A stretch of 64,000 nt of DNA, from NCBI GenBank assembly GCA_049296775.1, contig JBAQTB010000001.1:31491-95490 (forward strand). Direction: 5' to 3'. The notes beneath the pieces were generated by a model. That model was not told the origin of the DNA, ran no database searches, and saw only the letters and a program-made list of their open reading frames with translations. Positions 6,515 through 30,046 of this stretch are shown here, piece by piece. This DNA is from Patescibacteria group bacterium. Its GTDB lineage: Bacteria; Patescibacteriota; Patescibacteriia; UBA9934. A program made the position numbers and the translations under genes. How positions within the stretch are numbered: position 1 is the stretch's first letter; each line of letters starts with the position of its first letter.

Positions 6515-6520
6515 GCACAA

Positions 6521-6556
6521 AAATACAGCTCGAAAGGGCTGTATTTTGTTTTCATG
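6521..6556 (+). terminator. Intrinsic terminator after nusG (GAAA-tetraloop hairpin).
   Basis: atacagctc-gaaa-gggctgtat followed by tttgtttt. Confidence 0.65.
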
Positions 6557-6622
6557 AAATTAATTTTTATACCATCGGTGAACACTTGCTGCGTAGCTAC
6601 GTGAGTGCTAACATCGGCCCAT

Positions 6623-7291
6623 ATGAAATATAAAATCTTTACAGTGTTAGCGGCGACTATGCTCTTGGTCGGCGCCGGATGTGCGAATGACGTCGTAGAT
6701 AGCAATCTAGTACCCCAAGAAACTCCAATGACACAAAAAGATGAGCCGGCTTTTAATACTGGAGTAACCGAAACAGAAGAGCCCGTAGCCACTGGCGAAA
6801 TTGGATTTGATGTTACACCTCCGCAATCATGGGGTGAGTTTTCTGTGGTGCTGTATAAACGTACATTTTTATCAAATCCAGAAATTGGAGAAGACTGGGA
6901 GTACCAAGGATCCTTCAGCGAGCAACCGTCCGTGTACTATCGAGCCGCTGTTCCTGAGCACGTGATCGCTAGATCAGGCTATCCTGGAGATGTTCTTGGG
7001 TACAAGTCTGAAAACGATAATTATTACGTTAATATTGGCGGGAAGAATTGGGAGAAAGTCCCAACTTCTTTGACTACTCAAGAAGTAGCTCTAAAGAATG
7101 GGACAGCCCTACTGATTCAAGGCCCTCAGACTTCCGATGGCCCAAGTCCATTTCCTAATCAACCGGGTCAATTAGTTGCATATATCAATACCCCAAATGG
7201 CCCCCTCCCTGGCGGTGTCTTTATAGCTGATGCCGCAAGCGGCGTGACCATAGATGAGATGATCACGATGCTGTCCAATATCTCAATCTAA
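6623..7291 (+). CDS. Hypothetical lipoprotein inserted between nusG and rplK.
   Basis: Signal peptide with a lipobox (MKYKIFTVLAATMLLVGAGC). The ORF opens at 6605, but the MKYKIF start at 6623 is more plausible. No catalytic motifs. Confidence 0.55.
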   Translation: MKYKIFTVLAATMLLVGAGCANDVVDSNLVPQETPMTQKDEPAFNTGVTETEEPVATGEIGFDVTPPQSWGEFSVVLYKRTFLSNPEIGEDWEYQGSFSEQPSVYYRAAVPEHVIARSGYPGDVLGYKSENDNYYVNIGGKNWEKVPTSLTTQEVALKNGTALLIQGPQTSDGPSPFPNQPGQLVAYINTPNGPLPGGVFIADAASGVTIDEMITMLSNISI

Positions 7292-7317
7292 ACAACATTC
7301 GCCGTTATTTGCTAATG

Positions 7318-7350
7318 AATACAGCCCAAAACGGGCTGTATTTTGTTTTG
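7318..7350 (+). terminator. Intrinsic terminator after the lipoprotein gene, a near-duplicate of the nusG terminator.
   Basis: aatacagccc-aaaac-gggctgtatt followed by ttgttttg. It shares the 3' half gggctgtattttgtttt with the 6521..6556 terminator. Confidence 0.65.
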
Positions 7351-7362
7351 ACCCTGAAAACA

Positions 7363-7392
7363 TTGACATTTCTGCCCAAGATTGGCATACTT
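7363..7392 (+). promoter_or_regulatory. Putative promoter for rplK, followed by a ~130 nt structured leader.
   Basis: TTGACA at 7363, a 17-18 nt spacer, then CATACT/ATACTT. The leader 7393..7521 contains GC hairpins and could be an r-protein (L1) autoregulatory site. Speculative. Confidence 0.35.
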
Positions 7393-7521
7393 TGGCCACT
7401 TTCTCCTCCGCTAAAGTTACGGTGGGAAAGCCCCTAACGAAGTCCCCTAGGACGAAGTGGGGCTAAATCACGACGTGGTCGCTCGGGCACATACCCGTGA
7501 ATCCACTATAAACAAGATCGT

Positions 7522-7947
7522 ATGGCGAAAAAAATCAAGGCGATCATCAAAGTGCAGGCCATTGGTGGCGCGGCTACTCCAGCACCTCCACTTGGTCCAG
7601 TGCTTGGTCAGCAAGGCGTTAACATTCAGCAGTTCGTGCAGGAGTTCAACGCCGCCACTCAAGATCGTCGCGGTGAACTAGTCCCAGCCGTACTGACTAT
7701 TTTCGAAGATCGCTCTTTCTCCTTCATTCTAAAAACCGCTCCGGCTTCAGAAATGATCAAGAAGATGCTAAAACTCGAACGTGGTTCCGGCAAACCGTTA
7801 ACTGAAAAAGTTGGTAAGCTCACCAAGGCTCAATTGCGTGAGATCGCAGAAAAGAAGATGCCTGACCTGAATACTACTGACGTAGAAAAGGCCATGAAGA
7901 TCATCGCTGGTTCTGCCAGACAGATGGGCGTAGATGTAGAAGCGTAA
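7522..7947 (+). CDS. rplK: 50S ribosomal protein L11.
   Basis: 141 aa with the canonical L11 sequence MAKKIKAIIKVQAIGGAATPAPPLGPVLGQQGVNIQQF. Confidence 0.95.
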   Translation: MAKKIKAIIKVQAIGGAATPAPPLGPVLGQQGVNIQQFVQEFNAATQDRRGELVPAVLTIFEDRSFSFILKTAPASEMIKKMLKLERGSGKPLTEKVGKLTKAQLREIAEKKMPDLNTTDVEKAMKIIAGSARQMGVDVEA

Positions 7948-7985
7948 GGAAAGTGGTAAGCTATAGGTAATCACTAACTTAATCA

Positions 7986-8396
7986 GTGTCTATGGCCAAA
8001 GGTAGTACGTTCATCATAAAATTGTACTTTGCAGTCATTTCTGCAGTCACAATTATTACGCTCATGTACGGCTTGATCGACTTTGTATCCCTGGGTCTTA
8101 AGACTTACGTCTTCAAAGCTGCAGATGTACCAAGTTATCTACAAACCTGCGGAGACACCGACTACTACAACGCCTACTACGGCAAGCCAGTTGCCCCAGA
8201 CAGCGTTGTACCAGCGACCACCGCCGAACAGGCCAAGGCCGACTGTGAACGCAATCGTGCTGATACCCTAGAGAATTACGACAACCAAAAAGCTAATGAC
8301 GCGGTGCGAGATTTCGCACTCGTCCTAGTCTCACTCCCACTCTTCTTAATCCACTTCCGCTTTGTTTACAGAGATTGGAAAGAGGATAGAGGCTAG
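7986..8396 (+). CDS. Hypothetical two-TM membrane protein inserted between rplK and rplA.
   Basis: 136 aa with TM helices near both termini and a Cys-containing hydrophilic loop. No family recognised. Confidence 0.45.
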   Translation: MSMAKGSTFIIKLYFAVISAVTIITLMYGLIDFVSLGLKTYVFKAADVPSYLQTCGDTDYYNAYYGKPVAPDSVVPATTAEQAKADCERNRADTLENYDNQKANDAVRDFALVLVSLPLFLIHFRFVYRDWKEDRG

Positions 8397-8409
8397 ACCC
8401 CCACCTCCC

Positions 8410-8431
8410 CCTGACCCCCTCCTTACGAAGG
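8410..8431. repeat. Perfect C/G-rich hairpin upstream of rplA.
   Basis: ccccctcctt-acg-aaggagggg, a 9 bp stem with a 3 nt loop and no flanking U-tract. It resembles the hairpin inside the phosphohexomutase gene at 37320..37339. Confidence 0.5.
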
Positions 8432-8504
8432 AGGGGAAGCGAGCGAAGTAAAAAAACTTAACCAAACGTGGGAGCTCGAATGAGCGTTATTACCACATAC
8501 TTAT

Positions 8505-9200
8505 ATGACAAACAGCAAACGCTTCGTTGAACTCAAGAACAAGATCGATAAAAACAAGGTGCACTCAGTTACAGAGGCGATTACTGCTCTCAAAGCTAGT
8601 GCCACAGCTAAGTTTGATGAAACCGTTGAACTCCACTTCAATTTAGGGATTGATCCTAAGCAAGGAGATCAGCAGATTCGTGGCACGTTGACCTTGCCAC
8701 ACGGTACTGGCAAGACCAAGCGTGTTATCGCCTTCGTAGATGCGGCTAACGTAGACGCTGCCAAGGCTGCTGGCGCCGATCTGATTGGTGACGAAGCCAC
8801 CATTGAAGCGATCGCCAAGACCGGTAAGATTGATTTCGATGTTGCTGTAGCTATGCCAAACATGATGGCTAAGCTTGCTAAGGCCGCTAAGGTTCTTGGA
8901 CCTCGCGGACTCATGCCTAACCCTAAGACCGATACCGTTGGACCAAACATCACTAAAATGATCGAGGAACAAAAGGCCGGTAAGTTGTCTTTCAAGAACG
9001 ATGCCACCGCCAACGTTCACATGATCGTCGGTAAAGCATCTTTCGATGCCAAGAAACTGGAAGAGAATGTCGATATGGCCGTTGAAGCCATTCGCAAAAT
9101 CAAGCCAGCGACTTCTAAGGGTATTTACATCAAGTCCTGTGTCCTGACCTCAACCATGGGGCCAGGCATTCTACTCAGCACCGGTGCTGCCGTAGTCTAA
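8505..9200 (+). CDS. rplA: 50S ribosomal protein L1.
   Basis: 231 aa. The L1 family motifs KFDETVELHFNLGIDPK and IRGTLTLPHGTGK. Confidence 0.95.
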   Translation: MTNSKRFVELKNKIDKNKVHSVTEAITALKASATAKFDETVELHFNLGIDPKQGDQQIRGTLTLPHGTGKTKRVIAFVDAANVDAAKAAGADLIGDEATIEAIAKTGKIDFDVAVAMPNMMAKLAKAAKVLGPRGLMPNPKTDTVGPNITKMIEEQKAGKLSFKNDATANVHMIVGKASFDAKKLEENVDMAVEAIRKIKPATSKGIYIKSCVLTSTMGPGILLSTGAAVV

Positions 9201-9211
9201 ATTCCGCCTAC

Positions 9212-9248
9212 ATAAAACATCGCCAACCTGGCGATGTTTTGTATTTTT
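9212..9248 (+). terminator. rplA intrinsic terminator.
   Basis: acatcgcc-aacct-ggcgatgt followed by tttgtattttt. Confidence 0.65.
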
Positions 9249-9315
9249 GCATAAAAATTGCTATCCACATCTAGCCCTTATGCGATTTCATGGGAATTGC
9301 TAAGGTGACAGCAAT

Positions 9316-9894
9316 ATGAATGATACCTTTGGACCTGGATCAAATCAGGAAAGACGCCTTATCAACGACCATGATCGGCTAAAAGCCACGGTGGACAGCC
9401 TCAAAACCTTAGGCATGAAAATTGTGCTGACTCAAGGAGTTTACGACTTGATCCATGAAGGTCATGCGGCCTACTTAGAAAAAGCTCGGTCTTTTGGCGA
9501 TATTCTCATAGTCGCCGTGGATTCAGATGCGCTGACAAAAATCCGCAAAGGCCCTAAACGCCCGATTGTCCCGGAGGCGGAACGCGTCAACATGCTATTA
9601 CACTTACGACACGTGGATATCGTCACCGTCAAACAAGCTGAGCACGGCCTGGGTGATGTCATTGAGCTCGTCAAACCCGATGTCATGGTGTTCTCCTCCT
9701 CAACTACCGATGTTCTACCGGAAGAAGCCAAGTCTTATCAACAACATTGTGGTCGCATAGAAATCTTGCCGCCACAAGGCACCACGTCTACCACCGCGAG
9801 AGTTAGAAATTTGACCATTGAGGGTGCTGAGACATTGGCCAAAGAAGTCAGTGAACTAATTACCAAATTCCTCGATCAAATCAAAACGAGCTAA
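9316..9894 (+). CDS. Cytidylyltransferase-like (HxGH) nucleotidyltransferase.
   Basis: 192 aa. VLTQGVYDLIHEGHAAYLEKAR matches the (T/H)xGH nucleotidyltransferase signature of the HldE domain II, TagD and NMNAT superfamily. The substrate cannot be assigned. Confidence 0.65.
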   Translation: MNDTFGPGSNQERRLINDHDRLKATVDSLKTLGMKIVLTQGVYDLIHEGHAAYLEKARSFGDILIVAVDSDALTKIRKGPKRPIVPEAERVNMLLHLRHVDIVTVKQAEHGLGDVIELVKPDVMVFSSSTTDVLPEEAKSYQQHCGRIEILPPQGTTSTTARVRNLTIEGAETLAKEVSELITKFLDQIKTS

Positions 9895-9895
9895 T

Positions 9896-10720
9896 ATGCT
9901 CATCGCCTTTATTCCGGTACTCCACACAGGCTATCTTGAGTTATTCAAACAGCATCCTGAAGAGCTCGGTATCTTGGGCCTCGACGTTATTGCCGATTAC
10001 ACCGCACTCACCCGTGATCTACGTGTCATAGATCCACAAGTACTCAAACAAGCTATTGAAGGCCTACGAATTTTCCCGCGGATACGTGTCTTGTCAAAAG
10101 CAGACTTAGCTACTCTTGGAACCAACTCGACTAACATCATCATGCCTGATGACGATGTTTCACGTGAGCTGTCGAAGAGATATTTTGGCGATAAAGCTAC
10201 TTTTACTCAAGCCGCGATCCGTTACCGTTGGGATAAAACAGCTGTCACCAAGGAAAATACCGTAACTCCAGATCGCACCGTCTCCGGTAGCGCAGTTGAC
10301 CGCGAGCTCATGCAACTAGCTCGGGCAGAAGGTGAAAAGAGTCAGGATTGGTGGCGACAAGTGGGGGCTGCCATCCTCAAGGATGGTCAAGTCTTAGCCC
10401 AGGGACATAATCATCATCTACCTAGCGATTTCCACTTAGGAGTCAATGGCGATCCGCGGTCTAACTTCAACGCCGGCGAACGCATAGACCTCTCAACAGC
10501 CATTCATGCCGAGGCCAGTCTGATTGCCAACGCCGCCAAACTCGGCACACCGCTGAACGGAGCCACCATCTACGTGTCTACTTTTCCCTGCCCTAACTGC
10601 GCTCGCTTAATTGCAGAGGCCGGCATCAGCAAAGTCTATTACCAAAAAGGCTATTCCCTCCTGGACGCCGAAGAGATTTTCAAAAGCTACCAGATTGAAA
10701 TTATCTTAGTGCAAGACTAA
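9896..10720 (+). CDS. dCMP/cytidine deaminase-domain protein with an N-terminal degenerate nucleotidyltransferase-like domain.
   Basis: 274 aa. The C-terminus has the zinc-deaminase motifs AIHAEASLIANAA and STFPCPNCARLIAEAGI (HAE...PCxxC), as in dCMP deaminase/ComEB. The N-terminus has FIPVLHTGYLELF, an H-T-G-Y in place of HxGH. Its start ATG abuts the stop of the upstream gene. Confidence 0.7.
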   Translation: MLIAFIPVLHTGYLELFKQHPEELGILGLDVIADYTALTRDLRVIDPQVLKQAIEGLRIFPRIRVLSKADLATLGTNSTNIIMPDDDVSRELSKRYFGDKATFTQAAIRYRWDKTAVTKENTVTPDRTVSGSAVDRELMQLARAEGEKSQDWWRQVGAAILKDGQVLAQGHNHHLPSDFHLGVNGDPRSNFNAGERIDLSTAIHAEASLIANAAKLGTPLNGATIYVSTFPCPNCARLIAEAGISKVYYQKGYSLLDAEEIFKSYQIEIILVQD

Positions 10721-13188: not shown

Positions 13189-13212
13189 TTTGTTTGCTAT
13201 ACTTTAAGGCAT

Positions 13213-14070
13213 ATGGCTTCACTTATCAGCATCGGACAAATCCTTGATCAAAGCTTGGAACACGGTAAAAAATATTCTAAAGAACTCTTAGCGATTCTGC
13301 TCTGGATAGTCATTGCGGCTATTCCCTCAATTATTAGTCGACTCATTGCTCCAAGTGACGCCACAGACAGATTGAATACCGGTGACTGGATCTCGTTTGG
13401 TTTATCCTTGAGCGGGTTAATTATTACCGGCGTTGTGAGCGTGTGGGCCTATGCGGTCTTTATCTTGGCCGTAGATAGTCAGATGGCTAAGAGAAAAACA
13501 GATTTAAAAGCGTTGTACCAACACGGCTGGAAGATCTTCTGGAAATACCTAGCCCTGACCATCTCATTAGTAGGTGTAGTAATTGCCGCTGCGCTACCAG
13601 CGATCCTAGGAGTAGTGATAACTATTCTGGGTAGCACCGACAATGCTCCAGGCTTCCTGGCGGCCATTGGAGTACCGCTGCTCTTAATTGGATGTCCGAT
13701 CTCCATTTTCCTCATCATGAAATACGTAGTGCTCTTTGCTTTTGCGCCGTATCTTATGGTGCTAGAGAAAAAGTCACTCACGAATTCGTTTAAAGAGAGT
13801 GCTAAATTGGTCAAAGGACGCTGGTTAGCCGTGGCTATGAGGTTTATAGTGCCTAAGCTCGTCTTTTTCTTGGTCATGTACCTCATCACCGCTGTGGTGA
13901 CTATGGCTCTCAGCCTGCTCCTCGGCACAACGGCGACCATGTCTGGATTACTGACCTTGATTGTTTACGCTTTTAGTTTGCTGATCTCAGTCTTCCTGTC
14001 TATTGTCACCACGCCCCTCATCATTACCACCGACTACTTGCTGTATGACAGTCTCAAAAAAACCCGCTAA
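13213..14070 (+). CDS. Hypothetical polytopic membrane protein (tandem paralogue A).
   Basis: 285 aa with at least 6 TM helices. FKESAKLVKGRWLAVAMRFIV aligns with FKTSYALVKGQFWAILFRLVM in the next gene. Confidence 0.5.
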   Translation: MASLISIGQILDQSLEHGKKYSKELLAILLWIVIAAIPSIISRLIAPSDATDRLNTGDWISFGLSLSGLIITGVVSVWAYAVFILAVDSQMAKRKTDLKALYQHGWKIFWKYLALTISLVGVVIAAALPAILGVVITILGSTDNAPGFLAAIGVPLLLIGCPISIFLIMKYVVLFAFAPYLMVLEKKSLTNSFKESAKLVKGRWLAVAMRFIVPKLVFFLVMYLITAVVTMALSLLLGTTATMSGLLTLIVYAFSLLISVFLSIVTTPLIITTDYLLYDSLKKTR

Positions 14071-14857
14071 GCATCCGGTGGTCAGCACAGCTAAGTCACA
14101 GAGCGCCCAAAAATTACCGGGCGTTCTTTTCTTGATTAAAGACGCGACCGTTGTCACTTTCAAACTCAAAACTGTCATCTTGGGCTATGTGGCCTGGCTC
14201 CTAATACCCATTGGCCTCTTGCTAATTGCCCAAAATATCCCGGCACCGTATACAGAGTATTTGATTACCTTTGCCAATACCTTAACCCTCATCTTGAGCC
14301 TCTGGGTGACAGCCGCCATCACGCTATACGTAGCCGTAATCGTGAGCCATGACGCTGATGCCGACATTAACTTCACAGCGCTTGGCAACAGAGCTTGGGA
14401 AAAAGTCCTTAACCTGTTTGTCATTCAAGTACTCACGGTTATCGCTGTGGTCTGCGGCTTAATTCTCTTTGTCATTCCGGGCATAGTGCTCTGGGTCTGG
14501 ACGATCTTTGCGGTACAGGAGTCAATTCTAAGCGCCGCGTCTATCAAAGAAAATTTCAAAACTAGCTACGCCTTAGTGAAGGGTCAGTTTTGGGCGATCC
14601 TGTTCAGACTAGTCATGGCTAACCTCATCTTTACCTGTGTCATAGGCTTAGCGCTCGGTACGCTCATGAATCTGGGCCATTATGACCCGGGATTACTCAG
14701 TCTAGATGAATTCGCAGCTTGGCCAATCTGGTTAAGCATCGGTTTTGGCCTGATTATTTTACCCGTGTTGCCTGTAGCCCTCATCTTCCAACTCCTCCTT
14801 TACTTTGCGGTCAAAAAGTCGTACCCTGAGGTGGAAGTTAATCGCTCACACCCCTAG
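14045..14857 (+). CDS. Hypothetical polytopic membrane protein (tandem paralogue B).
   Basis: A paralogue of 13213..14070. The start is ambiguous: ATG 14045 overlaps the upstream gene by 26 nt, and GTG at about 14078 is an alternative. Confidence 0.45.
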   Translation: MTVSKKPAKHPVVSTAKSQSAQKLPGVLFLIKDATVVTFKLKTVILGYVAWLLIPIGLLLIAQNIPAPYTEYLITFANTLTLILSLWVTAAITLYVAVIVSHDADADINFTALGNRAWEKVLNLFVIQVLTVIAVVCGLILFVIPGIVLWVWTIFAVQESILSAASIKENFKTSYALVKGQFWAILFRLVMANLIFTCVIGLALGTLMNLGHYDPGLLSLDEFAAWPIWLSIGFGLIILPVLPVALIFQLLLYFAVKKSYPEVEVNRSHP

Positions 14858-16392: not shown

Positions 16393-16423
16393 AAAAACTG
16401 AGGCTTAGGCCTCAGTTTTTTTA
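16391..16423. terminator. Bidirectional intrinsic terminator shared by gatB (+) and miaA (-).
   Basis: aaaaaaa-ctgaggc-ttag-gcctcag-ttttttt. Confidence 0.75.
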
Positions 16424-17359
16424 TTGCAGAAACTTTTGAGCAACTTCCACAGCGCTCTTAGCGTCGCGGACCCAAATGATCCGATCGTCGCGCTTGAACC
16501 AGGTCTCTTGGCGTTTGGCGTAATGATGACTATCAAATTTGATACGTGTCACGGCGTCGCGGAGTTTGGTTTTGCCATCTAAGAACTCGCAAATTTGGCG
16601 ATAACCAATGCCGGTCATAGCCGTGGCGTTAGTACCGTACTTGTTCCGAAGCTCACGCACTTCATCGACCAGGCCGCCGGCGATCATGCCGTCAACACGC
16701 TCGTCGATACGGGCATAGAGGACTTCACGCTCAATCTCGATCCCAAGCTGTAAAGCATCGTACCGTGGGGCGTCGAACTTCTGGGTCTCAGCCAGGGTCT
16801 TACCAGTAGCTCGTAAAATCTCGATAGCACGCTCTAAGCGACGACGATTATCTTCATCGATCGTGGCAGCTGTGTCCGGATCACGCTCGGCGATCTCCGT
16901 CATAAGCTCGGCGTTCGAGAGCGTCGCCAGCTCAACGCGCAAGGTGTCATCTGGAGGCACGGCCGTAAAATTCGGTCTGTCGATCACAGCGCGTATATAC
17001 AGACCGGTACCGCCAACCAAAATTGGCACATGACCACGCTCTAAAATCTCGGCTATTTTAATGTCAGCATACGCCTGGAACTCGGCCACACTGAAAGTCT
17101 TATCGGGATCAGTAATGTCTAGCCCCCAGTGAGGGATGCCTTCCACCATCAGCGGCTTCTCCCCCGCCATCTGCTTAAGGTCTCCGCCCAAAATACGTTC
17201 GCCGACTGGCTTGGCGGTACCAATATCTAAACCCCGGTAAATAGTTCTAGAGTCAGCAGCAATAACTTCACCCTCAAAAGCACGAGCCAAAGCTAAACCA
17301 ATGTCAGTTTTACCTGAAGCCGTAGGGCCGACCACTGCAAGAATTTTGGGTAAAGGCAT
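16421..17359 (-). CDS. miaA: tRNA dimethylallyltransferase.
   Basis: 312 aa with the P-loop ILAVVGPTASGKTDIGLALA, DSRTIYRGLDIGTAKP and GGTGLY. Confidence 0.9.
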   Translation of the reverse strand: MPLPKILAVVGPTASGKTDIGLALARAFEGEVIAADSRTIYRGLDIGTAKPVGERILGGDLKQMAGEKPLMVEGIPHWGLDITDPDKTFSVAEFQAYADIKIAEILERGHVPILVGGTGLYIRAVIDRPNFTAVPPDDTLRVELATLSNAELMTEIAERDPDTAATIDEDNRRRLERAIEILRATGKTLAETQKFDAPRYDALQLGIEIEREVLYARIDERVDGMIAGGLVDEVRELRNKYGTNATAMTGIGYRQICEFLDGKTKLRDAVTRIKFDSHHYAKRQETWFKRDDRIIWVRDAKSAVEVAQKFLQ

Positions 17360-17409
17360 AAGTAGCCACTAGTTTGCCCGGAATTTGTTAAAGCTGCAAC
17401 TTGGAAGAT

Positions 17410-17451
17410 TGTAAAAAAGATGAGAGCGGGGGCCCGGATGGGCCCCCGCTC
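17410..17451 (-). terminator. Strong GC hairpin terminator after the hypothetical gene 17501..18265.
   Basis: gagcgggggccc-ggat-gggcccccgctc, a 12 bp perfect stem, followed on the minus strand by UCAUCUUUUUUAC. Confidence 0.7.
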
Positions 17452-17500
17452 GCGCGGTCACCGGTAACCGGGGCCCCAGTCTGGGACCCCAAGTAACCTG

Positions 17501-18265
17501 CTAATCATTTTTCACCAGTCGCAGCACGCCCGGTTGGCGCGGCTGCGTAACTGGCAGTGGCGGAATATTCCGCTCCGGAATGTCGTCGTCTTCTTCGAGC
17601 TTCCCCAGACATGAGTCTGGAAAATACTCGATTCTTTTACCGCTCGCTGACAGCGAGCGCTTGAACTTAGGCCGTTGCTCGAGTTCCAAACGTACGTACT
17701 CTTGGGCGGCAATGTAAGCCGTCCAGATCAGGTTGAAAAACTCGACCATCACCCCCAATTGATACGTGGAGTGCATGGCCCGCTTTTCAAATTTATCGCG
17801 GAAGTCACCGCGCGCCAGCCTGTAAGAGACCTCGTATTCCGGCCTCGCAAGATGCTCCTGCTGCCAGGCGTGTAACTTTTCCGGCTCAAGAAGCCGGATC
17901 AGCCTCTCCGCGCGATACGCGATTACTTCTGGCAGATCCATGATCGGCCCAGAGCAAAAGGGCAGAAAGCGCTCCTTGATCCAGAGACACATCTCACCCC
18001 AGAATTCCGGAGAGAAATCGGCGTCATCGTCAACCGCGCGCACGTAATTCTGGATCACTCCAGCCAAACGCGGTAGATGAGCACGCCGCGTGCCTCCCCC
18101 TTTTGGGAGCTGTACCAGGATACCTGGCGACACGAAGCATCTGTGAACGCAGTCAAGGATGTCATCCCGCCTGCACTGAGGTGCAGTGTACGGCATGTCG
18201 GAATGAACCAAAAACAGATTGAATCGTTGAGTCAAAGAACACCTCCAGTTAGCTGAAGCTAGCAA
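17501..18265 (-). CDS. Hypothetical protein.
   Basis: 254 aa, soluble, rich in Cys and Trp, with no recognisable motifs. Divergent from the three-gene block to its right. Confidence 0.45.
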   Translation of the reverse strand: MLASANWRCSLTQRFNLFLVHSDMPYTAPQCRRDDILDCVHRCFVSPGILVQLPKGGGTRRAHLPRLAGVIQNYVRAVDDDADFSPEFWGEMCLWIKERFLPFCSGPIMDLPEVIAYRAERLIRLLEPEKLHAWQQEHLARPEYEVSYRLARGDFRDKFEKRAMHSTYQLGVMVEFFNLIWTAYIAAQEYVRLELEQRPKFKRSLSASGKRIEYFPDSCLGKLEEDDDIPERNIPPLPVTQPRQPGVLRLVKND

Positions 18266-18333
18266 AAAAATCGACTTTTGTCAATCTGTCCACCCTAAGG
18301 TGCGGTATACTGTGATGAATAATTGCAGGCTCT

Positions 18334-19611
18334 ATGGTGGAACAAGCGGCGCGTAATCGAGCTGAAGTGGGTCGAAAATCCCCAGAAACTCAGCCAAAGG
18401 CTCGTGAAGTGTTAAAATTCAATGGATCCAAGCCAACTCTAGAAGCCCACCCTGTAACCCCGGAAACACCCGATTACGGCTTAGACCAGGTCACTTACAC
18501 AGCTGGCCAAGAGGTCAAGCTTATGGATGAAGCCGGTCGAACGACAGACTACACCGTAGTCTCCGCCAATCCGGATGATGGCGACGTGTTTCTACAAAAA
18601 ACTGGGGATACCACCGTCGCCCCCTCTCTGGAAATCAGACATAGGCTAGAGTTAGCACTAGAAGAAGCTGTACATCCCATCGCCGCTCAAGCCGACCAAT
18701 TGTGGCCCAAACTTTTGGCTAAATATACAAACTTGTCAGGATTCCAAGGGAACGATGAGAATTTCATCAGCAAGGTCACCGGCGGCAAAGGTAAGATTCT
18801 ATATCTGACCGGTTTAGAAGTTCTCAAAGACCATCCCAACTTTCAGAGTACTAATGATCAAGATCTACTCGAACGTGTCTTAGACAAAAACCTCAAACAG
18901 TACGCCGTTGAACACGCTAAATCAAAGGTTGAAGATAGGCATCCAGTCATTACTGCGGAACATCAAATCAGCAACTACGCCCTAAACTGCAAAATTCAAG
19001 CTGACTTAAGATGCACAGATGAAGAGCTGAAAGCGTCAGAAAAAATGCAAGAGTTAATTGAAGTAGAGATCACAACTGCCCTATCCAATGATCCACCGCT
19101 GCTCGAAATAGATGAGAATGACGACTGGGATAAAACCGAAGCAAAGCCTAATGCTCCAGAAAAATATCGGCCAATCGATGAACCTTATGGAGTTACATTA
19201 AGCCGAGCCAGAGAAACTTGGGCAGAAATGGGTCAACAGGCAGAAACTTATCAGAGACTAGTGCAAACGGAAGACCTTAGCTTAGATAAGCTGCAGGATA
19301 TTTATAGAGCTTTGAGCAAGTCGCTAGCAGAGGCCAAGGCTAGCTCTAGGCTCTTAAATGCTAAGCGCTTAGAATTGAGGGTGGACAAAGATGGCGCTCA
19401 GATCTCACTAGCCGAGCTCGATAAATGGGAGCAAATAGTCGCCAATCTCAAAAATCAAAACTTGGGAGTTGCAGATAAAACAATTAAAACACCCAAACTG
19501 GTAGGTCCGGTTGGATTCAATATATCGACACCGACGTCCGCGCCAGAGATAAAACCACCAAGTAAGGTCGCTAAGGTTCTAGATAAAATCAGTGAATGGT
19601 TCCGGATCTAA
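18334..19611 (+). CDS. Hypothetical hydrophilic protein.
   Basis: 425 aa with no signal peptide or TM segment, acidic and helix-prone. No family recognised. Confidence 0.5.
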   Translation: MVEQAARNRAEVGRKSPETQPKAREVLKFNGSKPTLEAHPVTPETPDYGLDQVTYTAGQEVKLMDEAGRTTDYTVVSANPDDGDVFLQKTGDTTVAPSLEIRHRLELALEEAVHPIAAQADQLWPKLLAKYTNLSGFQGNDENFISKVTGGKGKILYLTGLEVLKDHPNFQSTNDQDLLERVLDKNLKQYAVEHAKSKVEDRHPVITAEHQISNYALNCKIQADLRCTDEELKASEKMQELIEVEITTALSNDPPLLEIDENDDWDKTEAKPNAPEKYRPIDEPYGVTLSRARETWAEMGQQAETYQRLVQTEDLSLDKLQDIYRALSKSLAEAKASSRLLNAKRLELRVDKDGAQISLAELDKWEQIVANLKNQNLGVADKTIKTPKLVGPVGFNISTPTSAPEIKPPSKVAKVLDKISEWFRI

Positions 19612-19646
19612 AGTGTCCCCACGCTAGAGAAATATACGCTAAAAAA

Positions 19647-19656
19647 TTGCTATAAT
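19647..19656 (+). promoter_or_regulatory. Extended -10 promoter element upstream of 19685.
   Basis: TTGCTATAAT (TG-n-TATAAT), 28 nt upstream of the ATG. Confidence 0.35.
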
Positions 19657-19684
19657 TAGAGCAATCTTATTCTTTGATTTTGCT

Positions 19685-21211
19685 ATGAGTCATTACTATT
19701 ACATTCGTGGTGAAGGCGGCCCACGGCCAAGCGGCGATATATTTCCTAAACCAAAAAAATCTAAAATTGATGAGGCGGACCACGCCAATATATTGGCACT
19801 CACCGAACAGGCGGCCTTTGAAGCTGAAGAAGCGATGCCAAAAAGACGGAGCAAGGCCGTGGAATTGACAGCTCTGCAAAATCCTGAAGAACTCAACAAA
19901 TTAGCTAATCCTGAGCCAGCTTCTTTTAATGAGGCCAATCCTCTAGACCGGAATTTACCGGAAAAAATCAACAACACTCTTGATGTTGCTGAGATTCCTC
20001 AACGTGAACTCATCAAGTCTGCTGAAAAAGCCGAGAAATCGACCGATAGCTGGTTCACCAGTCTGGCTAAACATTCACAAAGCATAGCTAGCGGCGCTGG
20101 CACGTTATTGAGCAAGGCTTTTGCTGGTAGAAGCAATCCTGAATTTGCACCGCGTAGCATAATGAAAGACGCCGCCGAAGGTGCTAAAGAAGTCTTTGTA
20201 GATGCCCCTCTAGACATGCTCGTCGGCACCAAGGGCCCAAGTCTAGCCAGACTCCTCGGGGAAAATCTATCCGTGTACGATCTAGCAAGAGCTAGCAAGG
20301 CCGCCGTGATTGATGTAGCTAGTGGCGTCAGTAAGTACGCCAAAGAAGCGGTACGCGGCGATAAATATCACAGATTACCAGAAGAAGACTTTACGCCTGA
20401 AGGCCAGACCATCCCGGCAGCCGTTGATTTCATGAAGGATTTGAAAGAAGCGTTGGGTGGCGGTGAAACTAAAGGTATGCTAAGCGAAATTGCAGACAGA
20501 AAAGAGGATGCTGTGACCATGACCAAATATATCTTAGGTGGCGGCTTCTTCAAGGAAGTTTATACTGGCGTGAGTGACAAGATTACCGGAAAGCAGCGCA
20601 AAGCAGTTGAGGCGTTGTTTCAAGATGCAAATATCAATGGAGACAAGGCCAAACTCCGATCAAGATTAGACACCTCACCCCATGGCAAAAAATCTGCCCA
20701 TAATCCTGAACTAAGAGCCGTAGAGATCGCCATGAACAGATTAACTGAATTTGATAACGCGAATATCGACAGCCGTATTCACGCCGGACAGATCAGTGCG
20801 GATACGTTGCGCTACACTAGCGAAACGCTCAAGACCGCCAGTGAAGACGAGATCTTCTGGGGCAGAATGGTTAACGACGCGTTGCAGGTTGGTTCGCAAA
20901 GACTGGAGACTGCAGCTTCAGAAACTGAGGATATCGCCAATATCGCCGCTCAAGCTGAAGCTACAAAACAAGAAGCCATTTTAAGATCAAGAGAGAAATT
21001 CATTAAACTCATAGATGCAGCCGAACGCCAATATCAACGCAACAACGAAGTGCTAACAAAAAATAAACTAACCAAAGGTACCAGGGAAGCCATGGCACAG
21101 AACATGGATAAACTAGACGACCTCATGAATAAGTACGCTGCAGCCGTGACCGCTTTAGATGACCTATCCAAGTTTAAACCTACTGCTAAACGTTTAGCTA
21201 AGGCCGCCTAA
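19685..21211 (+). CDS. Hypothetical hydrophilic, helix-rich protein.
   Basis: 508 aa, rich in Lys, Glu and Ala, with no TM segment or signal peptide and no recognisable motifs. Confidence 0.5.
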   Translation: MSHYYYIRGEGGPRPSGDIFPKPKKSKIDEADHANILALTEQAAFEAEEAMPKRRSKAVELTALQNPEELNKLANPEPASFNEANPLDRNLPEKINNTLDVAEIPQRELIKSAEKAEKSTDSWFTSLAKHSQSIASGAGTLLSKAFAGRSNPEFAPRSIMKDAAEGAKEVFVDAPLDMLVGTKGPSLARLLGENLSVYDLARASKAAVIDVASGVSKYAKEAVRGDKYHRLPEEDFTPEGQTIPAAVDFMKDLKEALGGGETKGMLSEIADRKEDAVTMTKYILGGGFFKEVYTGVSDKITGKQRKAVEALFQDANINGDKAKLRSRLDTSPHGKKSAHNPELRAVEIAMNRLTEFDNANIDSRIHAGQISADTLRYTSETLKTASEDEIFWGRMVNDALQVGSQRLETAASETEDIANIAAQAEATKQEAILRSREKFIKLIDAAERQYQRNNEVLTKNKLTKGTREAMAQNMDKLDDLMNKYAAAVTALDDLSKFKPTAKRLAKAA

Positions 21212-21216
21212 AATCT

Positions 21217-21585
21217 ATGTCTTCACCTGCCGAACTCATCAACATTATCGCCGCCTCCCCGCTCTCAGAAACCACCAAGGATTTTTTTACCAAAAAGGTA
21301 GAAGCGCATGGAGCTACGCCAGAGATAGTTGATGCCCTACGTGAGCTTATCCGAGCGGTCAAAGGTCAAACTGCCCAAGCCCTCGGTAGCGGCTTACCCA
21401 AAACTGATAGTCAGCTCATAGCGGCTACCAAAGTCATGCAATCAGAGATTAAAGCTGCTACGGATACGTACGCCAGCACCATGCAGAAGCTAGAGGAACA
21501 CTCCGCTAGACTAGCTGCGGACATTCAAGAAGATCTAAAACATATAGAAAAACTCGTGGTCGATTCTGCCACGGCTGAAGCGTAA
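21217..21585 (+). CDS. Hypothetical small helical protein.
   Basis: 122 aa, starting 6 nt after the previous stop, so likely co-transcribed. Confidence 0.45.
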   Translation: MSSPAELINIIAASPLSETTKDFFTKKVEAHGATPEIVDALRELIRAVKGQTAQALGSGLPKTDSQLIAATKVMQSEIKAATDTYASTMQKLEEHSARLAADIQEDLKHIEKLVVDSATAEA

Positions 21586-21589
21586 ACAC

Positions 21590-21628
21590 AAAAACACGTA
21601 GGCTTAAAACCTACGTGTTTTGTATTCA
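21590..21628. terminator. Bidirectional terminator between the hypothetical block (+) and thrS (-).
   Basis: aaaa-acacgtagg-cttaaaa-cctacgtgt-tttgtatt. Confidence 0.7.
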
Positions 21629-21630
21629 AG

Positions 21631-23391
21631 TTACTTAATGGTTCCTGCCGCTACGGCCGCAGCAATCAGCTCTGATTGAGCAATCTCTAGTGCTGCTTCT
21701 TGACCGAAGACCTTGATCTGACACGGCTCACCGGCGACTTCTTTCTCTCCGAGTACAATGGTCCAAGGAATTTTTTCAATGGCTGCATTGCGAATTTTCT
21801 TGCCGACCTTTTCACTCGACTCATCTAGCTGAACCCGCAAACCAGCCCCATCCAACTTAGCTCTCAAGTCCGCAGCGAAAGACGCAAACTCATCTGACAC
21901 CGTCACTAACCTAATTTGTTCAGGTGCTAACCACATTGGGAATGCGCCAGCGTAATGTTCAATCATCACCGCCATAAAGCGCTCCAGTGAGCCCAGGATA
22001 GCGCGGTGAATCATAACCGGACGTTTCTTCAAGTTATCAGAATCCACGTACTCAAGCTCAAAGCGCTCTGGCAAATTGAAGTCCAACTGAATTGTCGCTA
22101 ACTGCCACTCTCTGCCAATGGCGTCCTTGGCGATAAAGTCGATCTTAGGTCCATAAAATGCTGCCTCCCCCACTCCCATCTCATAAGTCTGGCCTAGCTC
22201 ATCTAATAACTCTTTCAGCATGCCAACAGAAGTCTCCCAAACCTCAGCACCACCCAAATAAGCTTCTGGTTTAGCTGGATCATTGACAGATAGGCGCAGC
22301 CGCAAAGGCATGTCAAAGGCTTGGTAGAACCGGGTGATGATGTCGTAAATGGCGAGAGACTCAGCTTTGACCTGATCTAACCGGCAAAAAACGTGGGCGT
22401 CGTCTTGGGTAATGGAACGGACACGTGACAACCCCTGGAGCTGACCAGTATTTTCATCACGATACACGGTGGTCACTTCACTAAAGCGCAGTGGCAGATC
22501 GCGATAACTACGCACACGAGAAGCGTAAATCTGAGTGTGGTGCGGACAATTCATGGGCTTCAACACAAAGGTCTCTTCAGACTTTTTGCTGGAAACATGA
22601 AAAATATCATCCGCGAATTTGTCCCAGTGGCCGCTAGTCTTGTATAGATCACTTTTAGCCATGTGCGGAATGGTCACACGTGTGTAACCGTAAGGCTTCA
22701 TGAGTGACCACACAAAATTAACTAGCTGCTCACGCAAAATCGTGCCCTTGGGAGTAAACAGCGGCAAACCTGGACCAACGAGTGGAGAAAAAGTGAATAA
22801 GTCGAGCTCAACTCCGAGCTTACGGTGATCCCGGCGCTTAGCCTCTTCTTGCATAACCAAATACGCATCGAGCTCTGCCTTGGTTACGAAAGCTACGCCG
22901 TAAATACGGGTGAGCTGAGCATTCTTTTCATCGCCACGCCAATAGGCACCAGCGAGTTTGGTGAGCTTAAAAGCTTCTGAGTCGATGTCCTTAGGATTTT
23001 CGATGTGACCGCCACGACAGAGGTCCAGGTAATTTCCAGATTTGTAGAAAGTCAGATTCTGACCATCTTTAGCAAACTCATCAATGAGCTCAGTCTTATA
23101 AGGATTACCAGCGAACTCTTGCCTAGCTTCATCCGCCGTCACATCAATTCGCTCAAAACTCTTCCAAGTCGTCAAAATCTTGCGCATGCGTTTCTCAATC
23201 TTAGGAAGCTCAGTCTCCGAAATCGGAGTGGAGAACTCGAAATCGTAATAAAAACCATCTTCAATGGCCGGACCGATCGTTCGCTTAGCATCTGGGTACA
23301 TCTCGAGCACGGCAGCAGCGAGCAAATGGGCTAACGAGTGGCGATAATGTTCGAGTTCTTGAGAGTTCATAGGTATTGGATCCTGACGCAA
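21631..23391 (-). CDS. thrS: Threonine--tRNA ligase, lacking the N-terminal TGS/N1 domains.
   Basis: The editing-domain HxxxH motif (HYRHSLAHLLA), class II aaRS motifs (FRDE, the GLxR region) and the anticodon-binding C-terminus. The start is TTG at 23391 or ATG at 23370. Confidence 0.9.
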   Translation of the reverse strand: MRQDPIPMNSQELEHYRHSLAHLLAAAVLEMYPDAKRTIGPAIEDGFYYDFEFSTPISETELPKIEKRMRKILTTWKSFERIDVTADEARQEFAGNPYKTELIDEFAKDGQNLTFYKSGNYLDLCRGGHIENPKDIDSEAFKLTKLAGAYWRGDEKNAQLTRIYGVAFVTKAELDAYLVMQEEAKRRDHRKLGVELDLFTFSPLVGPGLPLFTPKGTILREQLVNFVWSLMKPYGYTRVTIPHMAKSDLYKTSGHWDKFADDIFHVSSKKSEETFVLKPMNCPHHTQIYASRVRSYRDLPLRFSEVTTVYRDENTGQLQGLSRVRSITQDDAHVFCRLDQVKAESLAIYDIITRFYQAFDMPLRLRLSVNDPAKPEAYLGGAEVWETSVGMLKELLDELGQTYEMGVGEAAFYGPKIDFIAKDAIGREWQLATIQLDFNLPERFELEYVDSDNLKKRPVMIHRAILGSLERFMAVMIEHYAGAFPMWLAPEQIRLVTVSDEFASFAADLRAKLDGAGLRVQLDESSEKVGKKIRNAAIEKIPWTIVLGEKEVAGEPCQIKVFGQEAALEIAQSELIAAAVAAGTIK

Positions 23392-23394
23392 GGA

Positions 23395-23620
23395 AGGATC
23401 TAGTAATTAGAGTTAAACAAAAACCGACCAAGGCCCTAAACGGACGCTGGTCGGGGTCAAGCTTTAGCTCGACGGTTCCACCCGAATTCCTCGCTCTGTC
23501 ATAGACGGGTCACGGCCGAGTTTCTTGCGATTCTTGCCGACCTCGACCCATCTCTACAGCTCGGGGCGCTTTTATGAATTGTCTTTCGCTCCTGGGTTAG
23601 TAGCCCAATCACTGCGAATA
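23395..23620 (-). promoter_or_regulatory. T-box riboswitch-like leader of thrS (minus strand).
   Basis: On the minus strand GAAUUCGGGUGGAACCGUCG matches the T-box consensus AAUUAGGGUGGNACCGCG. A terminator hairpin follows (CCGACCA...UGGUCGG + UUUUUGUUU, plus 23414..23454). A candidate specifier region is GGGCUACUAACCC, with ACU (Thr) followed by A. Confidence 0.55.
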
Positions 23621-23673: not shown

Positions 23674-24867
23674 TTATTCCTTGGGCTCTTCAATGATGAT
23701 CTTAATGTGATCTTGCAAGGTAGGCACGCGCTTCAGCCAGAAAGGCGTAAAAGACACGGACACGTCTTGAATGGCCTCTGAAGCCCGGAGTAAGGTCAAG
23801 ACCTCATGAGGTGCCCTACCCACAAATCTGTCTTTATTTAAGGTTGGAGCATCTTCAGCCAAAATCGAAAGTCCGTCTAGATATACAGTAATCACAGCTT
23901 CCCCATTGGCAGCATCAAGCGCGCTAACTTCCGTACGCATGGTTTGATCATTCACTAAAGACACACGGAAACCGTCTGGAATCTGTTCAGACAAAAGCTT
24001 TTCAGCATAATGCTTAACTTCCAACCTAGGGTAATACACGGCAGTGATCTTCTGCTTTAAGGTCAAAGTAAATGAACCCACTTCAGCACCAACGGCGGAG
24101 TCAGTCGTCTCCGCAACGGTTACGATCTCATAAGATTCGCCGTCTAACTTGGCCCTATCTACACCGGCACTTAATGTCTGTTGGGCCTCAGATAAAATTT
24201 CATCTGACAAGGTCTGAACAGCTGTATCAATATCCGCCTCAGTTAAAACCCGAACATATTGCACGCCGCCAGTCATGGCCGCGACACTCACGCCATAAAT
24301 CTGAGTTTGCTGTGTGGCATTCAAACCAGGAATAGTAAATTTAGAGGCACCAATTTCGCCACCCTTACCGGCGACATCTGCCTTTACAAATACCTCCACC
24401 TGACCATTAGCTGGCACGGTGGCAAGATTCTGCAAACGGTACAAAATCCCTTCTTGAGAAATCAAACGCGTCGTAGCCACGAGCGGTTGATCTTTAGCTG
24501 ATTCGTTAATCAAAGTCACGTAACCACTCGCCTTATTTTCTACCGGACTGGCGCCTTCTGACGGCAAAGTAAAGACGCGACTCTTGGAAAGTTCCGTAGC
24601 AGTCACCAGACCGGCCACCTGGCCTTCAGCAATTGGCTCCGCAATCACATCAATATCCGCTTCAACGTCGATAACCTTAGGATCGGCGACGATTTTAATT
24701 GTAGCTCTAGAGACAGACAGGTACAGGACGCAGAGCAGCAGTAAAAAAGTAATTACCACGAAAGCCACGGCAATATGTTGGTACATACGCAGTGAACGTG
24801 ACAATGGCTTCCTCCCTGCCCCGGCGCGCTCAACACGCTTTGGTGCATTTTTAACCATAGATATCAA
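23674..24867 (-). CDS. Hypothetical membrane-anchored protein (N-terminal TM, large extracytoplasmic domain).
   Basis: 397 aa with a TTG start and one TM helix (IAVAFVVITFLLLLCVLYLSV). The rest is beta-rich and Thr/Val-rich. It lies between dnaE and thrS. Confidence 0.5.
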   Translation of the reverse strand: MISMVKNAPKRVERAGAGRKPLSRSLRMYQHIAVAFVVITFLLLLCVLYLSVSRATIKIVADPKVIDVEADIDVIAEPIAEGQVAGLVTATELSKSRVFTLPSEGASPVENKASGYVTLINESAKDQPLVATTRLISQEGILYRLQNLATVPANGQVEVFVKADVAGKGGEIGASKFTIPGLNATQQTQIYGVSVAAMTGGVQYVRVLTEADIDTAVQTLSDEILSEAQQTLSAGVDRAKLDGESYEIVTVAETTDSAVGAEVGSFTLTLKQKITAVYYPRLEVKHYAEKLLSEQIPDGFRVSLVNDQTMRTEVSALDAANGEAVITVYLDGLSILAEDAPTLNKDRFVGRAPHEVLTLLRASEAIQDVSVSFTPFWLKRVPTLQDHIKIIIEEPKE

Positions 24868-24905
24868 GATTATAGCACGACCTTTTCTTGACTCTGGATT
24901 TGTGA

Positions 24906-28609: not shown

Positions 28610-29467
28610 TTGGAGCTGGCCATGAGCAAGCCGCCCCCGTTTAATCTCTACGCTCCAACCTCCTGCAACCTCGATCCGTCCCTGGCTCGTCATTTGCAGG
28701 TAGCACGCGCCTCCCAAGTTGCCAGCCAAGCCTTTGACTGGCAAGCCTTGATCATCAAACTACAGTGTAGCGTGCGACCAGTGCTAAAAACAGCCAGCTG
28801 GCTGTTGCTAGCAAGCATCATCCTCACCGCTGAAGTCACGCTGTCAACGGCGCTCACAGCCGGTTCAATCTACGGACTAGTCGCCTTCATGTGCCTGCTG
28901 GCTGGTTGGGATGAGCATCCGAAGACACTAGTCTTCAAGCAGGCCAGTCAAAGCATGTTGGCGACCATCGTACAACCCCTCGCGTCTGGAATACAGCTCT
29001 TCAACATTGCCACCTACAAGTTCAAAGCGCCGCCCGTGATGGTGACGACACTCTCCGGTACCTCGAGATTGAAGACTGACTCCATTTGGACCGATGAAGT
29101 CTGCCAGGACCCACGGTTTGGTGAATACCTACTACTCCTTGAGTTCATGCAGGCCTGGAGTGATTTGGCGAGTACGCTTAATCGCCTCATCATGAGCGCG
29201 GAGGATCAAGTACTACCCGGCGTGGTCGCTAAGTTTATCCTTGACCATCGGGCGACACTCGAACTGAAAGAGTTGCAGTTGAGAAGTTTCATCAAACACT
29301 GCACTGCGCTCGCTACGCTCGGTGAACCTGGCGCCGTGGCACCAGAGACTCATCAGCCGCTCTTTGGTCAGGCCGAGGCCGTGCACAAACACCTGGCCAG
29401 CCTCAGGCGCATCAACTCTGAAGCTCAGAGTTTACTCGCCGACATGGTGCGAAATGGCAAATACTGA
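28610..29467 (+). CDS. Hypothetical protein in a GC-rich island.
   Basis: 285 aa with a central hydrophobic stretch and no recognisable motifs. Local GC is about 58 % against a background near 49 %. Confidence 0.45.
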   Translation: MELAMSKPPPFNLYAPTSCNLDPSLARHLQVARASQVASQAFDWQALIIKLQCSVRPVLKTASWLLLASIILTAEVTLSTALTAGSIYGLVAFMCLLAGWDEHPKTLVFKQASQSMLATIVQPLASGIQLFNIATYKFKAPPVMVTTLSGTSRLKTDSIWTDEVCQDPRFGEYLLLLEFMQAWSDLASTLNRLIMSAEDQVLPGVVAKFILDHRATLELKELQLRSFIKHCTALATLGEPGAVAPETHQPLFGQAEAVHKHLASLRRINSEAQSLLADMVRNGKY

Positions 29468-29650: not shown

Positions 29651-30046
29651 ATGCTCAACCTGCTACTGGTCTTTAGTGCCATGGCACAAGAGACGGACAT
29701 CGCCGCCGTACCCGCACCGGATGAGTTGCGCTGTCAGCTCATCATCACGAGGGACTTCCTGGCGCTTCAGCGCCAGCTAGAGCTGCAAGTCATCGAGCAA
29801 TTGATGCTCGCCGACCCGCTCAATCGCCGGCAACGCAAAGCCGTCAAAGCGGGATTGGAAACGGCCATAGCTAGCGTGGCCCACACTGATCAGCAAAGCA
29901 CTACCGTCATCGGGCGCCTGGCAGCCCTAGAAACGGAGTTCTACCTAGCTAACCCGAGCCTGGAACTGAGGCCACTCTCGCTCCATGTCTGCATCAACGC
30001 AATTCCGTCGGACGAGCCCCAGGGTCTCGTTCTTGATAGAAGCTGA
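29651..30046 (+). CDS. Hypothetical protein in the GC-rich island.
   Basis: 131 aa, roughly 60 % GC with GC-rich codons. No motifs recognised. Confidence 0.4.
   Translation: MLNLLLVFSAMAQETDIAAVPAPDELRCQLIITRDFLALQRQLELQVIEQLMLADPLNRRQRKAVKAGLETAIASVAHTDQQSTTVIGRLAALETEFYLANPSLELRPLSLHVCINAIPSDEPQGLVLDRS

Follow-up and report, generated by a model that had tools for sequence, protein, structure and literature searches.

The locus between miaA and thrS

Here, we analyzed a block of four genes in a stretch of 64,000 nucleotides from a Patescibacteria group bacterium (contig JBAQTB010000001.1; the whole stretch is referred to as the window). The genes, named A, B, C and D, lie between miaA and thrS (Table 1). 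In the metagenome-assembled genome deposited at NCBI as 'Patescibacteria group bacterium' they are WAZ14_00280 to WAZ14_00295, all annotated as 'hypothetical protein', and identical A-D sequences were also present in the Logan assembly of SRR28012402. A preliminary description of this DNA had pointed out four open reading frames (ORFs), with A divergent from B, C and D, and all of them were reproduced in a six-frame ORF list; the gap between C and D, given there as 6 nt, is actually 5 nt (21212-21216). In comparison with related genomes, the block is a clade-restricted, fast-evolving orphan island that a small group of Patescibacteria carries at a fixed slot (miaA / island / thrS).

Synteny had been proposed as a check of the block, and at least 12 related metagenomic lineages indeed have orthologues in the interval from miaA to thrS. 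Iteration of hidden Markov models (HMMs) over all ORFs of the related loci resulted in six families (U, A, B, C, D and E), with the common order miaA(-), [U(+)], A(-), B(+), C(+), D(+), [E(+)], thrS(-), x394 and dnaE, where x394 encodes a 394-aa membrane protein. The window carries A-D only; U and E are found in relatives. Paralogy among the six families was considered and rejected, as they are unrelated by profile-profile comparison.

The gene content of the slot varied among lineages. All six genes were present in L002, L008, L014 and L015, and A, C and D, without B, in L025/L026. Between miaA and thrS of L022 there were only C (449 aa) and D, with neither A nor B, and in L005, D was followed by a gene of 65 aa. 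C and D were adjacent in every lineage, 3-8 nt apart. A metagenome search that started from x394, and was thus independent of the block, recovered four loci, and C-D was found in all three that reached far enough. Considering this variation in gene content together with the constant adjacency of C and D, C-D is the invariant core and A, B, U and E are accessory. The idea of one four-gene system did not survive the comparison: the conserved promoters define three transcription units (A, B and C-D), and relatives lack B, lack both A and B, or add U and E.

Table 1. Genes and expression signals of the block (positions in the window)
Feature	Position	Strand	Remarks
Terminator of A	17414..17451	-	12-bp stem with 11 G-C pairs at 17424-17451, then T-run; insulates A from miaA
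Gene A, longest ORF	17501..18265	-	254 aa (six-frame ORF list)
Gene A from TTG	17501..18235	-	~244 aa; alternative ATG at 18196; accessory orphan
Shine-Dalgarno sequence of A	18240..18246	-	GGAGGTG; invariant in all relatives
Promoter of A	18256..18284	-	TTGACA, 17 nt, TGcTAGCTT; consensus -35 and extended -10; kept in relatives
Element upstream of B	18278..18311	+	TTGTCA, 22 nt, TGnGGTATACT
Gene B	18334..19611	+	425 aa; accessory orphan
Extended -10 of C-D	19648-19656	+	TGCTATAAT; reads TGCTATACT in every relative
Gene C	19685..21211	+	508 aa; core orphan
Gene D	21217..21585	+	122 aa; core orphan
Bidirectional terminator	21591..21621	.	14-bp stem flanked by A-run and T-run; between convergent D and thrS

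Both terminators and the extended -10 before C that had been described earlier were found, the latter kept in relatives (Table 1). The promoters in the A-B and B-C intergenic regions were almost invariant, while the coding DNA was saturated with changes. Upstream of B, TTTTGTCAAT followed by TGnGGTATACT was invariant in relatives, and its TTGTCA shares bases with the -35 of A. This conserved element is probably the promoter of B, with non-canonical spacing. Around the extended -10 of C-D, AAAAATTGCTATACT and the leader motif TTTGATTTT were nearly invariant across lineages. TGNTATAMT occurred five times in the window; four of these were directly upstream of genes, and hence it looks like the usual promoter form of this genome. 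TGCTATAMT was also observed at 13195-13203, 24869-24877 (minus strand) and 52066-52074, directly upstream of three other genes. The copy before x394 ends approximately 10 nt short of the start codon, which suggests that the x394 leader is very short or absent.

The start of A differed by method: the ORF list gave 254 aa, the gene caller 231 aa and PGAP 188 aa. The earlier figure of 254 aa stands as the longest possible ORF; on the other hand, GGAGGTG (18246..18240) and the TTG at 18235, both kept in relatives, give a protein of 244 aa. The genome is nearly free of Shine-Dalgarno (SD) sequences, with GGAG, GAGG or AGGA upstream in only 4 of the 38 confident genes of the window, and most start codons in the window have T at position -1. 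B, C and D thus conform to the rule in lacking an SD, and A with its strong SD is the exception.

To the left of the block are gatB and miaA, and to the right are thrS, x394 and dnaE. The setting had been regarded as strictly housekeeping, which does not hold since several other unannotated genes are located nearby. x394 itself (23674-24858, minus strand) is an orphan without a Pfam match and contains a single hydrophobic segment. Its place between thrS and dnaE is constant, and its conservation among relatives is 79-98 %, i.e., it is a slow-evolving clade-specific gene, unlike the block. GC content was uneven, reaching 0.54 at 17001-18000 (gene A) and 0.44 at 19001-20000 (the B/C junction) in a window of ~0.49. 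No noteworthy repeats were found across the block region, including no direct repeat of more than 26 nt in 16400-23400. Further away, a 1661-aa ORF (52717-57702, plus strand) with fibronectin-III and purple-acid-phosphatase-N type Ig-like domains probably encodes a giant surface protein.

Divergence of the block and replacement of alleles

Amino-acid identity between lineages was 79-99 % for miaA, thrS and x394 and 86-92 % for gatB and dnaE, compared with 19-30 % for A, 26-42 % for B and 23-44 % for C. D, the most conserved gene of the block, showed 53-75 % identity between lineages and 47-49 % to the L022 and L025 copies. A-D have diverged 3-5 times further than the flanking genes. A is the least conserved of the four, with a few aromatic and acidic positions kept. 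The ratio of non-synonymous to synonymous substitution rates (dN/dS) in close pairs was 0.02-0.14 for B, C and D and ~0.3 for A. A-D are real genes under purifying selection.

That the ORFs are spurious deserves next to no credence. Such a view could draw on A, which lies in a GC-rich stretch, has a start called in three ways and is overlapped by a long antisense ORF in L002. However, frames, lengths and motifs are kept across lineages at saturated synonymous divergence, dN/dS in close pairs is well below 1, and promoters and the SD are conserved. For B, C and D the spurious-ORF reading is already refuted.

Divergence was not uniform along the block. Between L005 and L015/L016, identity was 95 % for D and 94 % for thrS, but ~40 % for B and C. 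In the comparison of L005 and L017, the last 400 nt of C together with the whole of D formed the best-conserved part.

The clearest pattern was observed between L002 and L008. These two showed 92-99 % nucleotide identity over thrS, x394, B and all promoters, which dropped to 57-80 % in the interior of U, in the 5' third of A, and in a tract that begins near codon 35 of C, covers D and ends in the first part of E. Within the C-D tract, the synonymous divergence (dS) was 2.2-2.9 versus 0.13-0.20 in the flanks, and the breakpoints were located in conserved segments. L003 and L004 were 100 % identical to L002, and L009 was 99.98 % identical to L008, across the junctions. Assembly chimerism was considered as the cause of this mosaic and rejected: both allele combinations recur in independent assemblies, so the mosaic is not an assembly artefact. 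Judged from these sequences, the C-D tract is a recombinational import of a divergent allele and not a local relaxation of constraint, the replacement being seen in a single strain pair (L002/L008). Separately, the thrS-x394 intergenic region (L002 8773-9083 versus L008) showed 33-54 % identity with many gaps in these strains, which are otherwise 95-99 % identical.

Several unannotated genes near the block were found to diverge fast as well. Identity between relatives was 48 % for a DUF7847 protein (13213-14070), 42-49 % for a 270-aa membrane protein (14045-14857) and 31 % for a 131-aa protein (29651-30046), and a 281-aa protein (28622-29467) had no match in relatives. High divergence thus appears to be general to the lineage-specific genes of these genomes, and the block is at its extreme end.

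These observations bear on two explanations, neither of which is our preferred one. One is that A, B and C-D are unrelated orphans without a joint function, which accumulated in a permissive slot that tolerates gain, loss and fast drift. The three separate promoters, the varying gene content, the lack of relationship among the six families and the fast divergence of other orphans in the window are all consistent with it. However, the order and orientation of U, A, B, C, D and E are kept wherever these genes are present, the divergent promoter region shared by A and B is almost invariant, and the coupling of C and D is universal. We regard this explanation as rather unlikely, albeit one to be taken seriously.

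The other explanation is that the block is a conflict or recognition module whose products would interact with an evolving antagonist or partner (phage, host bacterium or competitor), e.g., a set of non-classically exported host-interaction factors or a domain-less defence or anti-defence pair, with divergent alleles maintained by frequency-dependent selection. The contrast between flanks (79-99 % identity) and A, B and C (19-44 %) speaks for such a module, as do the sharp breakpoints of the divergent L002/L008 tract that runs from codon ~35 of C into E, the recurrence of both allele combinations in independent assemblies and the variable accessory content. A parallel may be seen in cultured Saccharibacteria, in which a few core genes have unusually low inter-strain identity and have been discussed with regard to phenotypic (host-range) differences (PMC9040727).

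Several results speak against a conflict module. No signal peptide or transmembrane (TM) segment was seen in A-D, and the genes called in the annotated stretch (window ~9.7-51.5 kb) did not include a secretion ATPase. The only PADLOC match was to a coiled-coil tail, and no enzymatic domain was found. Every lineage carries C-D, and always at a single site, whereas defence islands are patchy. In addition, dN/dS is low, with no sign of positive selection at the whole-gene level, and there are no phage or plasmid relatives. On balance, we consider a conflict module unlikely.

Architecture of the four proteins and search for relatives

As had been described, none of the four proteins has a TM segment: the highest 19-residue Kyte-Doolittle mean in A-D was at most 1.27, versus 3.07 for x394. 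All had been called acidic or Lys/Glu-rich, which is right for B, C and D (isoelectric points of 5.1-6.1) and not for A, which is Leu/Arg-rich with an isoelectric point of 6.5-7.0. Likewise, A had been characterized as Cys/Trp-rich. Its 7 Cys and 5 Trp in 254 aa are approximately twice the average, and the point is weak given that no Cys is invariant among relatives.

B has its best-conserved core at aa 45-120, which, judged by eye, consists of a beta-rich-looking segment followed by a helix. A helical middle part and a Pro-rich linker come next, and the protein ends with an amphipathic helix (aa 409-425, PSKVAKVLDKISEWFRI; consensus PSRxAxxLDKITxWF) that is kept in all B proteins. The hydrophobic moment of the last 15 residues, 0.68, is the maximum in B.

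C ranges from 449 to 718 aa in relatives and is homologous over its full length in all lineages. It begins with the motif MSHVYHxNPExGGP, and further conserved islands were found at aa 121-124 (ESWF; ESW(Y/F) in relatives), aa 185-200 (PSLARLLGENLSVYDL; alignment consensus PSLLxxLGExLSIYDL) and aa 282-299 (YILGGGFFKEVYTGVSDK; alignment consensus YVLGGGFxxEVYSGVKDK). Linkers of variable length, modelled at low confidence, separate the islands. The AlphaFold model of C was all-helical, with a predicted local distance difference test score (pLDDT) of 46 from 9 sequences; only aa 389-496 were modelled at pLDDT 65-82. These residues form long C-terminal helices with a strong heptad at 464-496 (hydrophobic occupancy of a/d positions 78 % versus 8 %), and the coiled coil is duplicated in the longer forms of C. 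The motifs YVLGGGF and DLGRGY could suggest an actin-like protein, but this was rejected because of their wrong order, the all-helical prediction and the absence of the second motif from the window protein.

The model of D was of better quality (pLDDT 78.6) and contained three short N-terminal helices (4-12, 18-31 and 35-57) and a fourth, 57-residue heptad helix at 65-121 (a/d hydrophobic occupancy 56 % versus 15 %). The C-terminus of D reads A(K/T)AEA. Thus, the check for coiled coils suggested in the preliminary description turned up heptad helices in both C and D. The Foldseek check, also suggested there, was carried out on the C model and yielded no significant fold match, within the limit of a model at pLDDT 46; the matches were BAR-like bundles at E 0.06-1 and TM-scores of 0.19-0.25.

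The absence of recognizable motifs was borne out by the database searches. For A-D, no significant family was found in Pfam, NCBIfam, PHROGs or PADLOC, and the best E-value in PHROGs was only 0.002. The sole PADLOC match involved D, which aligned with the coiled-coil tail of ZorA (residues 304-403 in a model of 545 positions; E 2.7e-4) but not with the MotA/ExbB membrane domain; A, B and C had none. Profiles of all four families produced only coiled-coil noise against PDB sequences, and Pfam searches of 17 C homologues, of relatives of U, E and A, and of isolated N-terminal domains of D gave nothing significant. No enzymatic or nucleotide-binding domain was detected for A-D in any library searched.

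Searches of sequence collections also returned few relatives. When 1.84 billion cluster representatives were scanned exhaustively with phmmer, 8 relatives of C were identified, all of them clade-internal; this count rests on the exhaustive scan, as a word-indexed search with C was blind even to C itself. D had 22 other clusters at 46-60 % identity and B had one, and relatives of D among 185,579 species-representative genomes amounted to four loci only. A literature search found no description of this locus. The earlier suggestion of a lineage-specific or undescribed block is therefore supported: relatives are clade-restricted, with none in curated libraries or solved structures. The A-D families are new as regards the sequence and fold space searched, and no new mechanism is demonstrated by this.

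The same searches address the possibility that the proteins are known housekeeping factors (for division, replication loading or chromosome organization) that have diverged beyond the reach of searches. C-D is a clade core pair among informational genes with a strong conserved promoter, and D, in which a long coiled coil follows a small N-terminal domain, is laid out in a way reminiscent of small division proteins. However, profile searches of Pfam and PDB found nothing, no remote match to housekeeping families appeared, and the HMMER scan of 1.84 billion representatives gave clade-internal relatives of C only. Moreover, housekeeping proteins of these genomes are 79-99 % conserved, compared with 19-57 % for the block. 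Such an origin is very unlikely.

That the block is what remains of a prophage or another mobile element is more improbable by far. Orphan genes, variable content and uneven local GC are features that a remnant could share. However, there was no PHROGs match, and no relatives of the block were found in IMG/VR, INPHARED or PLSDB: tblastn of C against phage and plasmid records and of B against phage records gave no match, and pattern scans of IMG/VR from the C and D profiles were empty. Neither an integrase nor a tRNA was found within the block, flanking repeats were absent, and every lineage has the block at the same chromosomal site.

A possible distant version of C-D was observed in L013 (Parcubacteria), where three small D-like proteins (99, 136 and 133 aa) are encoded at 6232-10029, interleaved with two very acidic orphans (364 and 472 aa). 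A class A penicillin-binding protein and a c-di-AMP receptor are encoded upstream of them. One of the small proteins matched D directly (E 4.4e-7), and the other two matched only via profile iteration. The large acidic proteins were examined as relatives of B or C and rejected, since the similarity was not significant. In addition, the 364-aa protein ends with ...LDQLRGLTP, resembling the LDNLTP end of long C proteins. This arrangement may be a distant version of C-D.

Possible role of C-D and comparison with known systems

We tentatively favor, at somewhat less than even confidence, the reading that C-D is a non-enzymatic, all-alpha coiled-coil hetero-oligomer that serves as a scaffold or adaptor, with B as a tethered partner. 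The universal coupling of C and D, the heptad helices on both proteins and the joint conservation of D with the 3' end of C point to a hetero-oligomer, and the all-helical heptad architecture agrees best with a structural or adaptor role. In such a complex, the C-terminal heptad helices of C would pair with the 57-residue heptad helix of D, and the short conserved motifs of C, spaced by variable linkers, could dock partners. B, where present, may be an adaptor that is anchored to the membrane or a partner protein by the amphipathic helix at its C-terminus. We infer the complex, its scaffold or adaptor role and the tethering of B alike.

Several points weigh against this scaffold or adaptor reading. 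The allele replacement of C-D in one close pair is more typical of conflict or recognition loci than of housekeeping scaffolds, and so is the low identity of B and C between L005 and L015 in spite of 95 % identity in D. Other nearby genes also diverge fast (31-49 %), so rapid change alone is non-diagnostic. The C model is poor, and what appears as a disordered linker may simply mean a segment that was not modelled. Finally, no positive evidence ties A-D to any cellular structure.

The extreme divergence and allele replacement hint at a role in interaction or conflict. A role in defence has no support: no PADLOC model was significantly matched, no enzymatic domain was found, and C-D never changes its site or goes missing in the lineages compared. 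Scaffold and conflict are partly compatible as readings, because the former concerns what the proteins are and the latter why they change. A bolder and quite unlikely proposal would join the two: C-D, with B as an optional tether, may be the core of an undescribed clade-specific intracellular coiled-coil apparatus of episymbiotic Patescibacteria (e.g., an attachment or polarity hub), or a domain-less conflict pair, whose interaction surfaces are kept as divergent alleles by recombination and frequency-dependent selection.

Approximately half of the genes in Patescibacteria are without annotation, and how these bacteria attach to host cells and why they depend on them is still poorly understood. 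Although orphan genes abound in them, the invariant yet fast-evolving C-D pair with its conserved promoters and allele swapping is a well-defined target among them, and the locus offers a compact, well-delimited test case. Its value lies in a clade-core pair that outpaces its neighbours, conserved promoters, transient accessory partners and at least one clean allele swap. If C-D is a structural or interaction module, it would provide a handle on the lineage-specific cell biology of uncultured bacteria. Should it turn out to be mere filler under low constraint, it would calibrate the speed at which such orphan genes drift.

We compared the block with several known systems. Among type VII substrates, WXG100/Esx and LXG-Lap proteins could be considered, but no Pfam WXG100 or LXG match was obtained for A-D at E <=1, and the structural match was no better than that to thousands of other hairpins. 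D has no tryptophan and hence no WXG motif, its loop being LGSGLPKTD, and no FtsK/SpoIIIE-type ATPase (EssC/EccC) was among the genes called in window ~9.7-51.5 kb. LXG proteins have swappable toxin ends, whereas C is homologous along its whole length. With regard to ESCRT-III/Snf7 and BAR scaffolds, the structural scores were not significant or non-specific, the C model was of low confidence (pLDDT 46), and the block proteins had no profile match to Snf7, PspA or BAR families. No block gene significantly matched a system model among the PADLOC defence systems.

The target of a diversity-generating retroelement was also considered and rejected. There was no repeat pair (no direct repeat of >26 nt in 16400-23400) and no reverse transcriptase among the genes called; in addition, variation in such targets is confined to ~100-150 bp, whereas the L002/L008 divergence spans ~2 kb. 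The conserved terminal helix of B, with its hydrophobic moment of 0.68 after a Pro-rich linker, may resemble membrane tethers of the FtsA/MinD type.

One of the two closest comparisons in style is with the specificity loci comQXP and agrBDC, which are hypervariable and have sharp recombination breakpoints. Similarly, the divergent segment of the block spans adjacent genes and is bounded by conserved sequence in near-identical strains. However, the block has no kinase, peptide precursor or membrane protein, and the pattern comes from one strain pair only.

Also among the closest in style are polar hubs of the PopZ/DivIVA type and the HMW1-3/P65 proteins of the Mycoplasma terminal organelle, which are lineage-specific scaffolds of an acidic, disordered or coiled-coil nature. 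These have no sequence or fold relationship to the block, whose localization and oligomerization are only predicted, and recombinational allele replacement is not a described feature of them. On the other hand, the hub proteins and the block, whose products are probably cytoplasmic as well, are alike in being hydrophilic, acidic and helical or of low complexity, with short terminal motifs around variable linkers. In both cases the proteins lack an enzymatic domain, are restricted to a single lineage and diverge fast, and they belong to genome-reduced, surface-attached bacteria.

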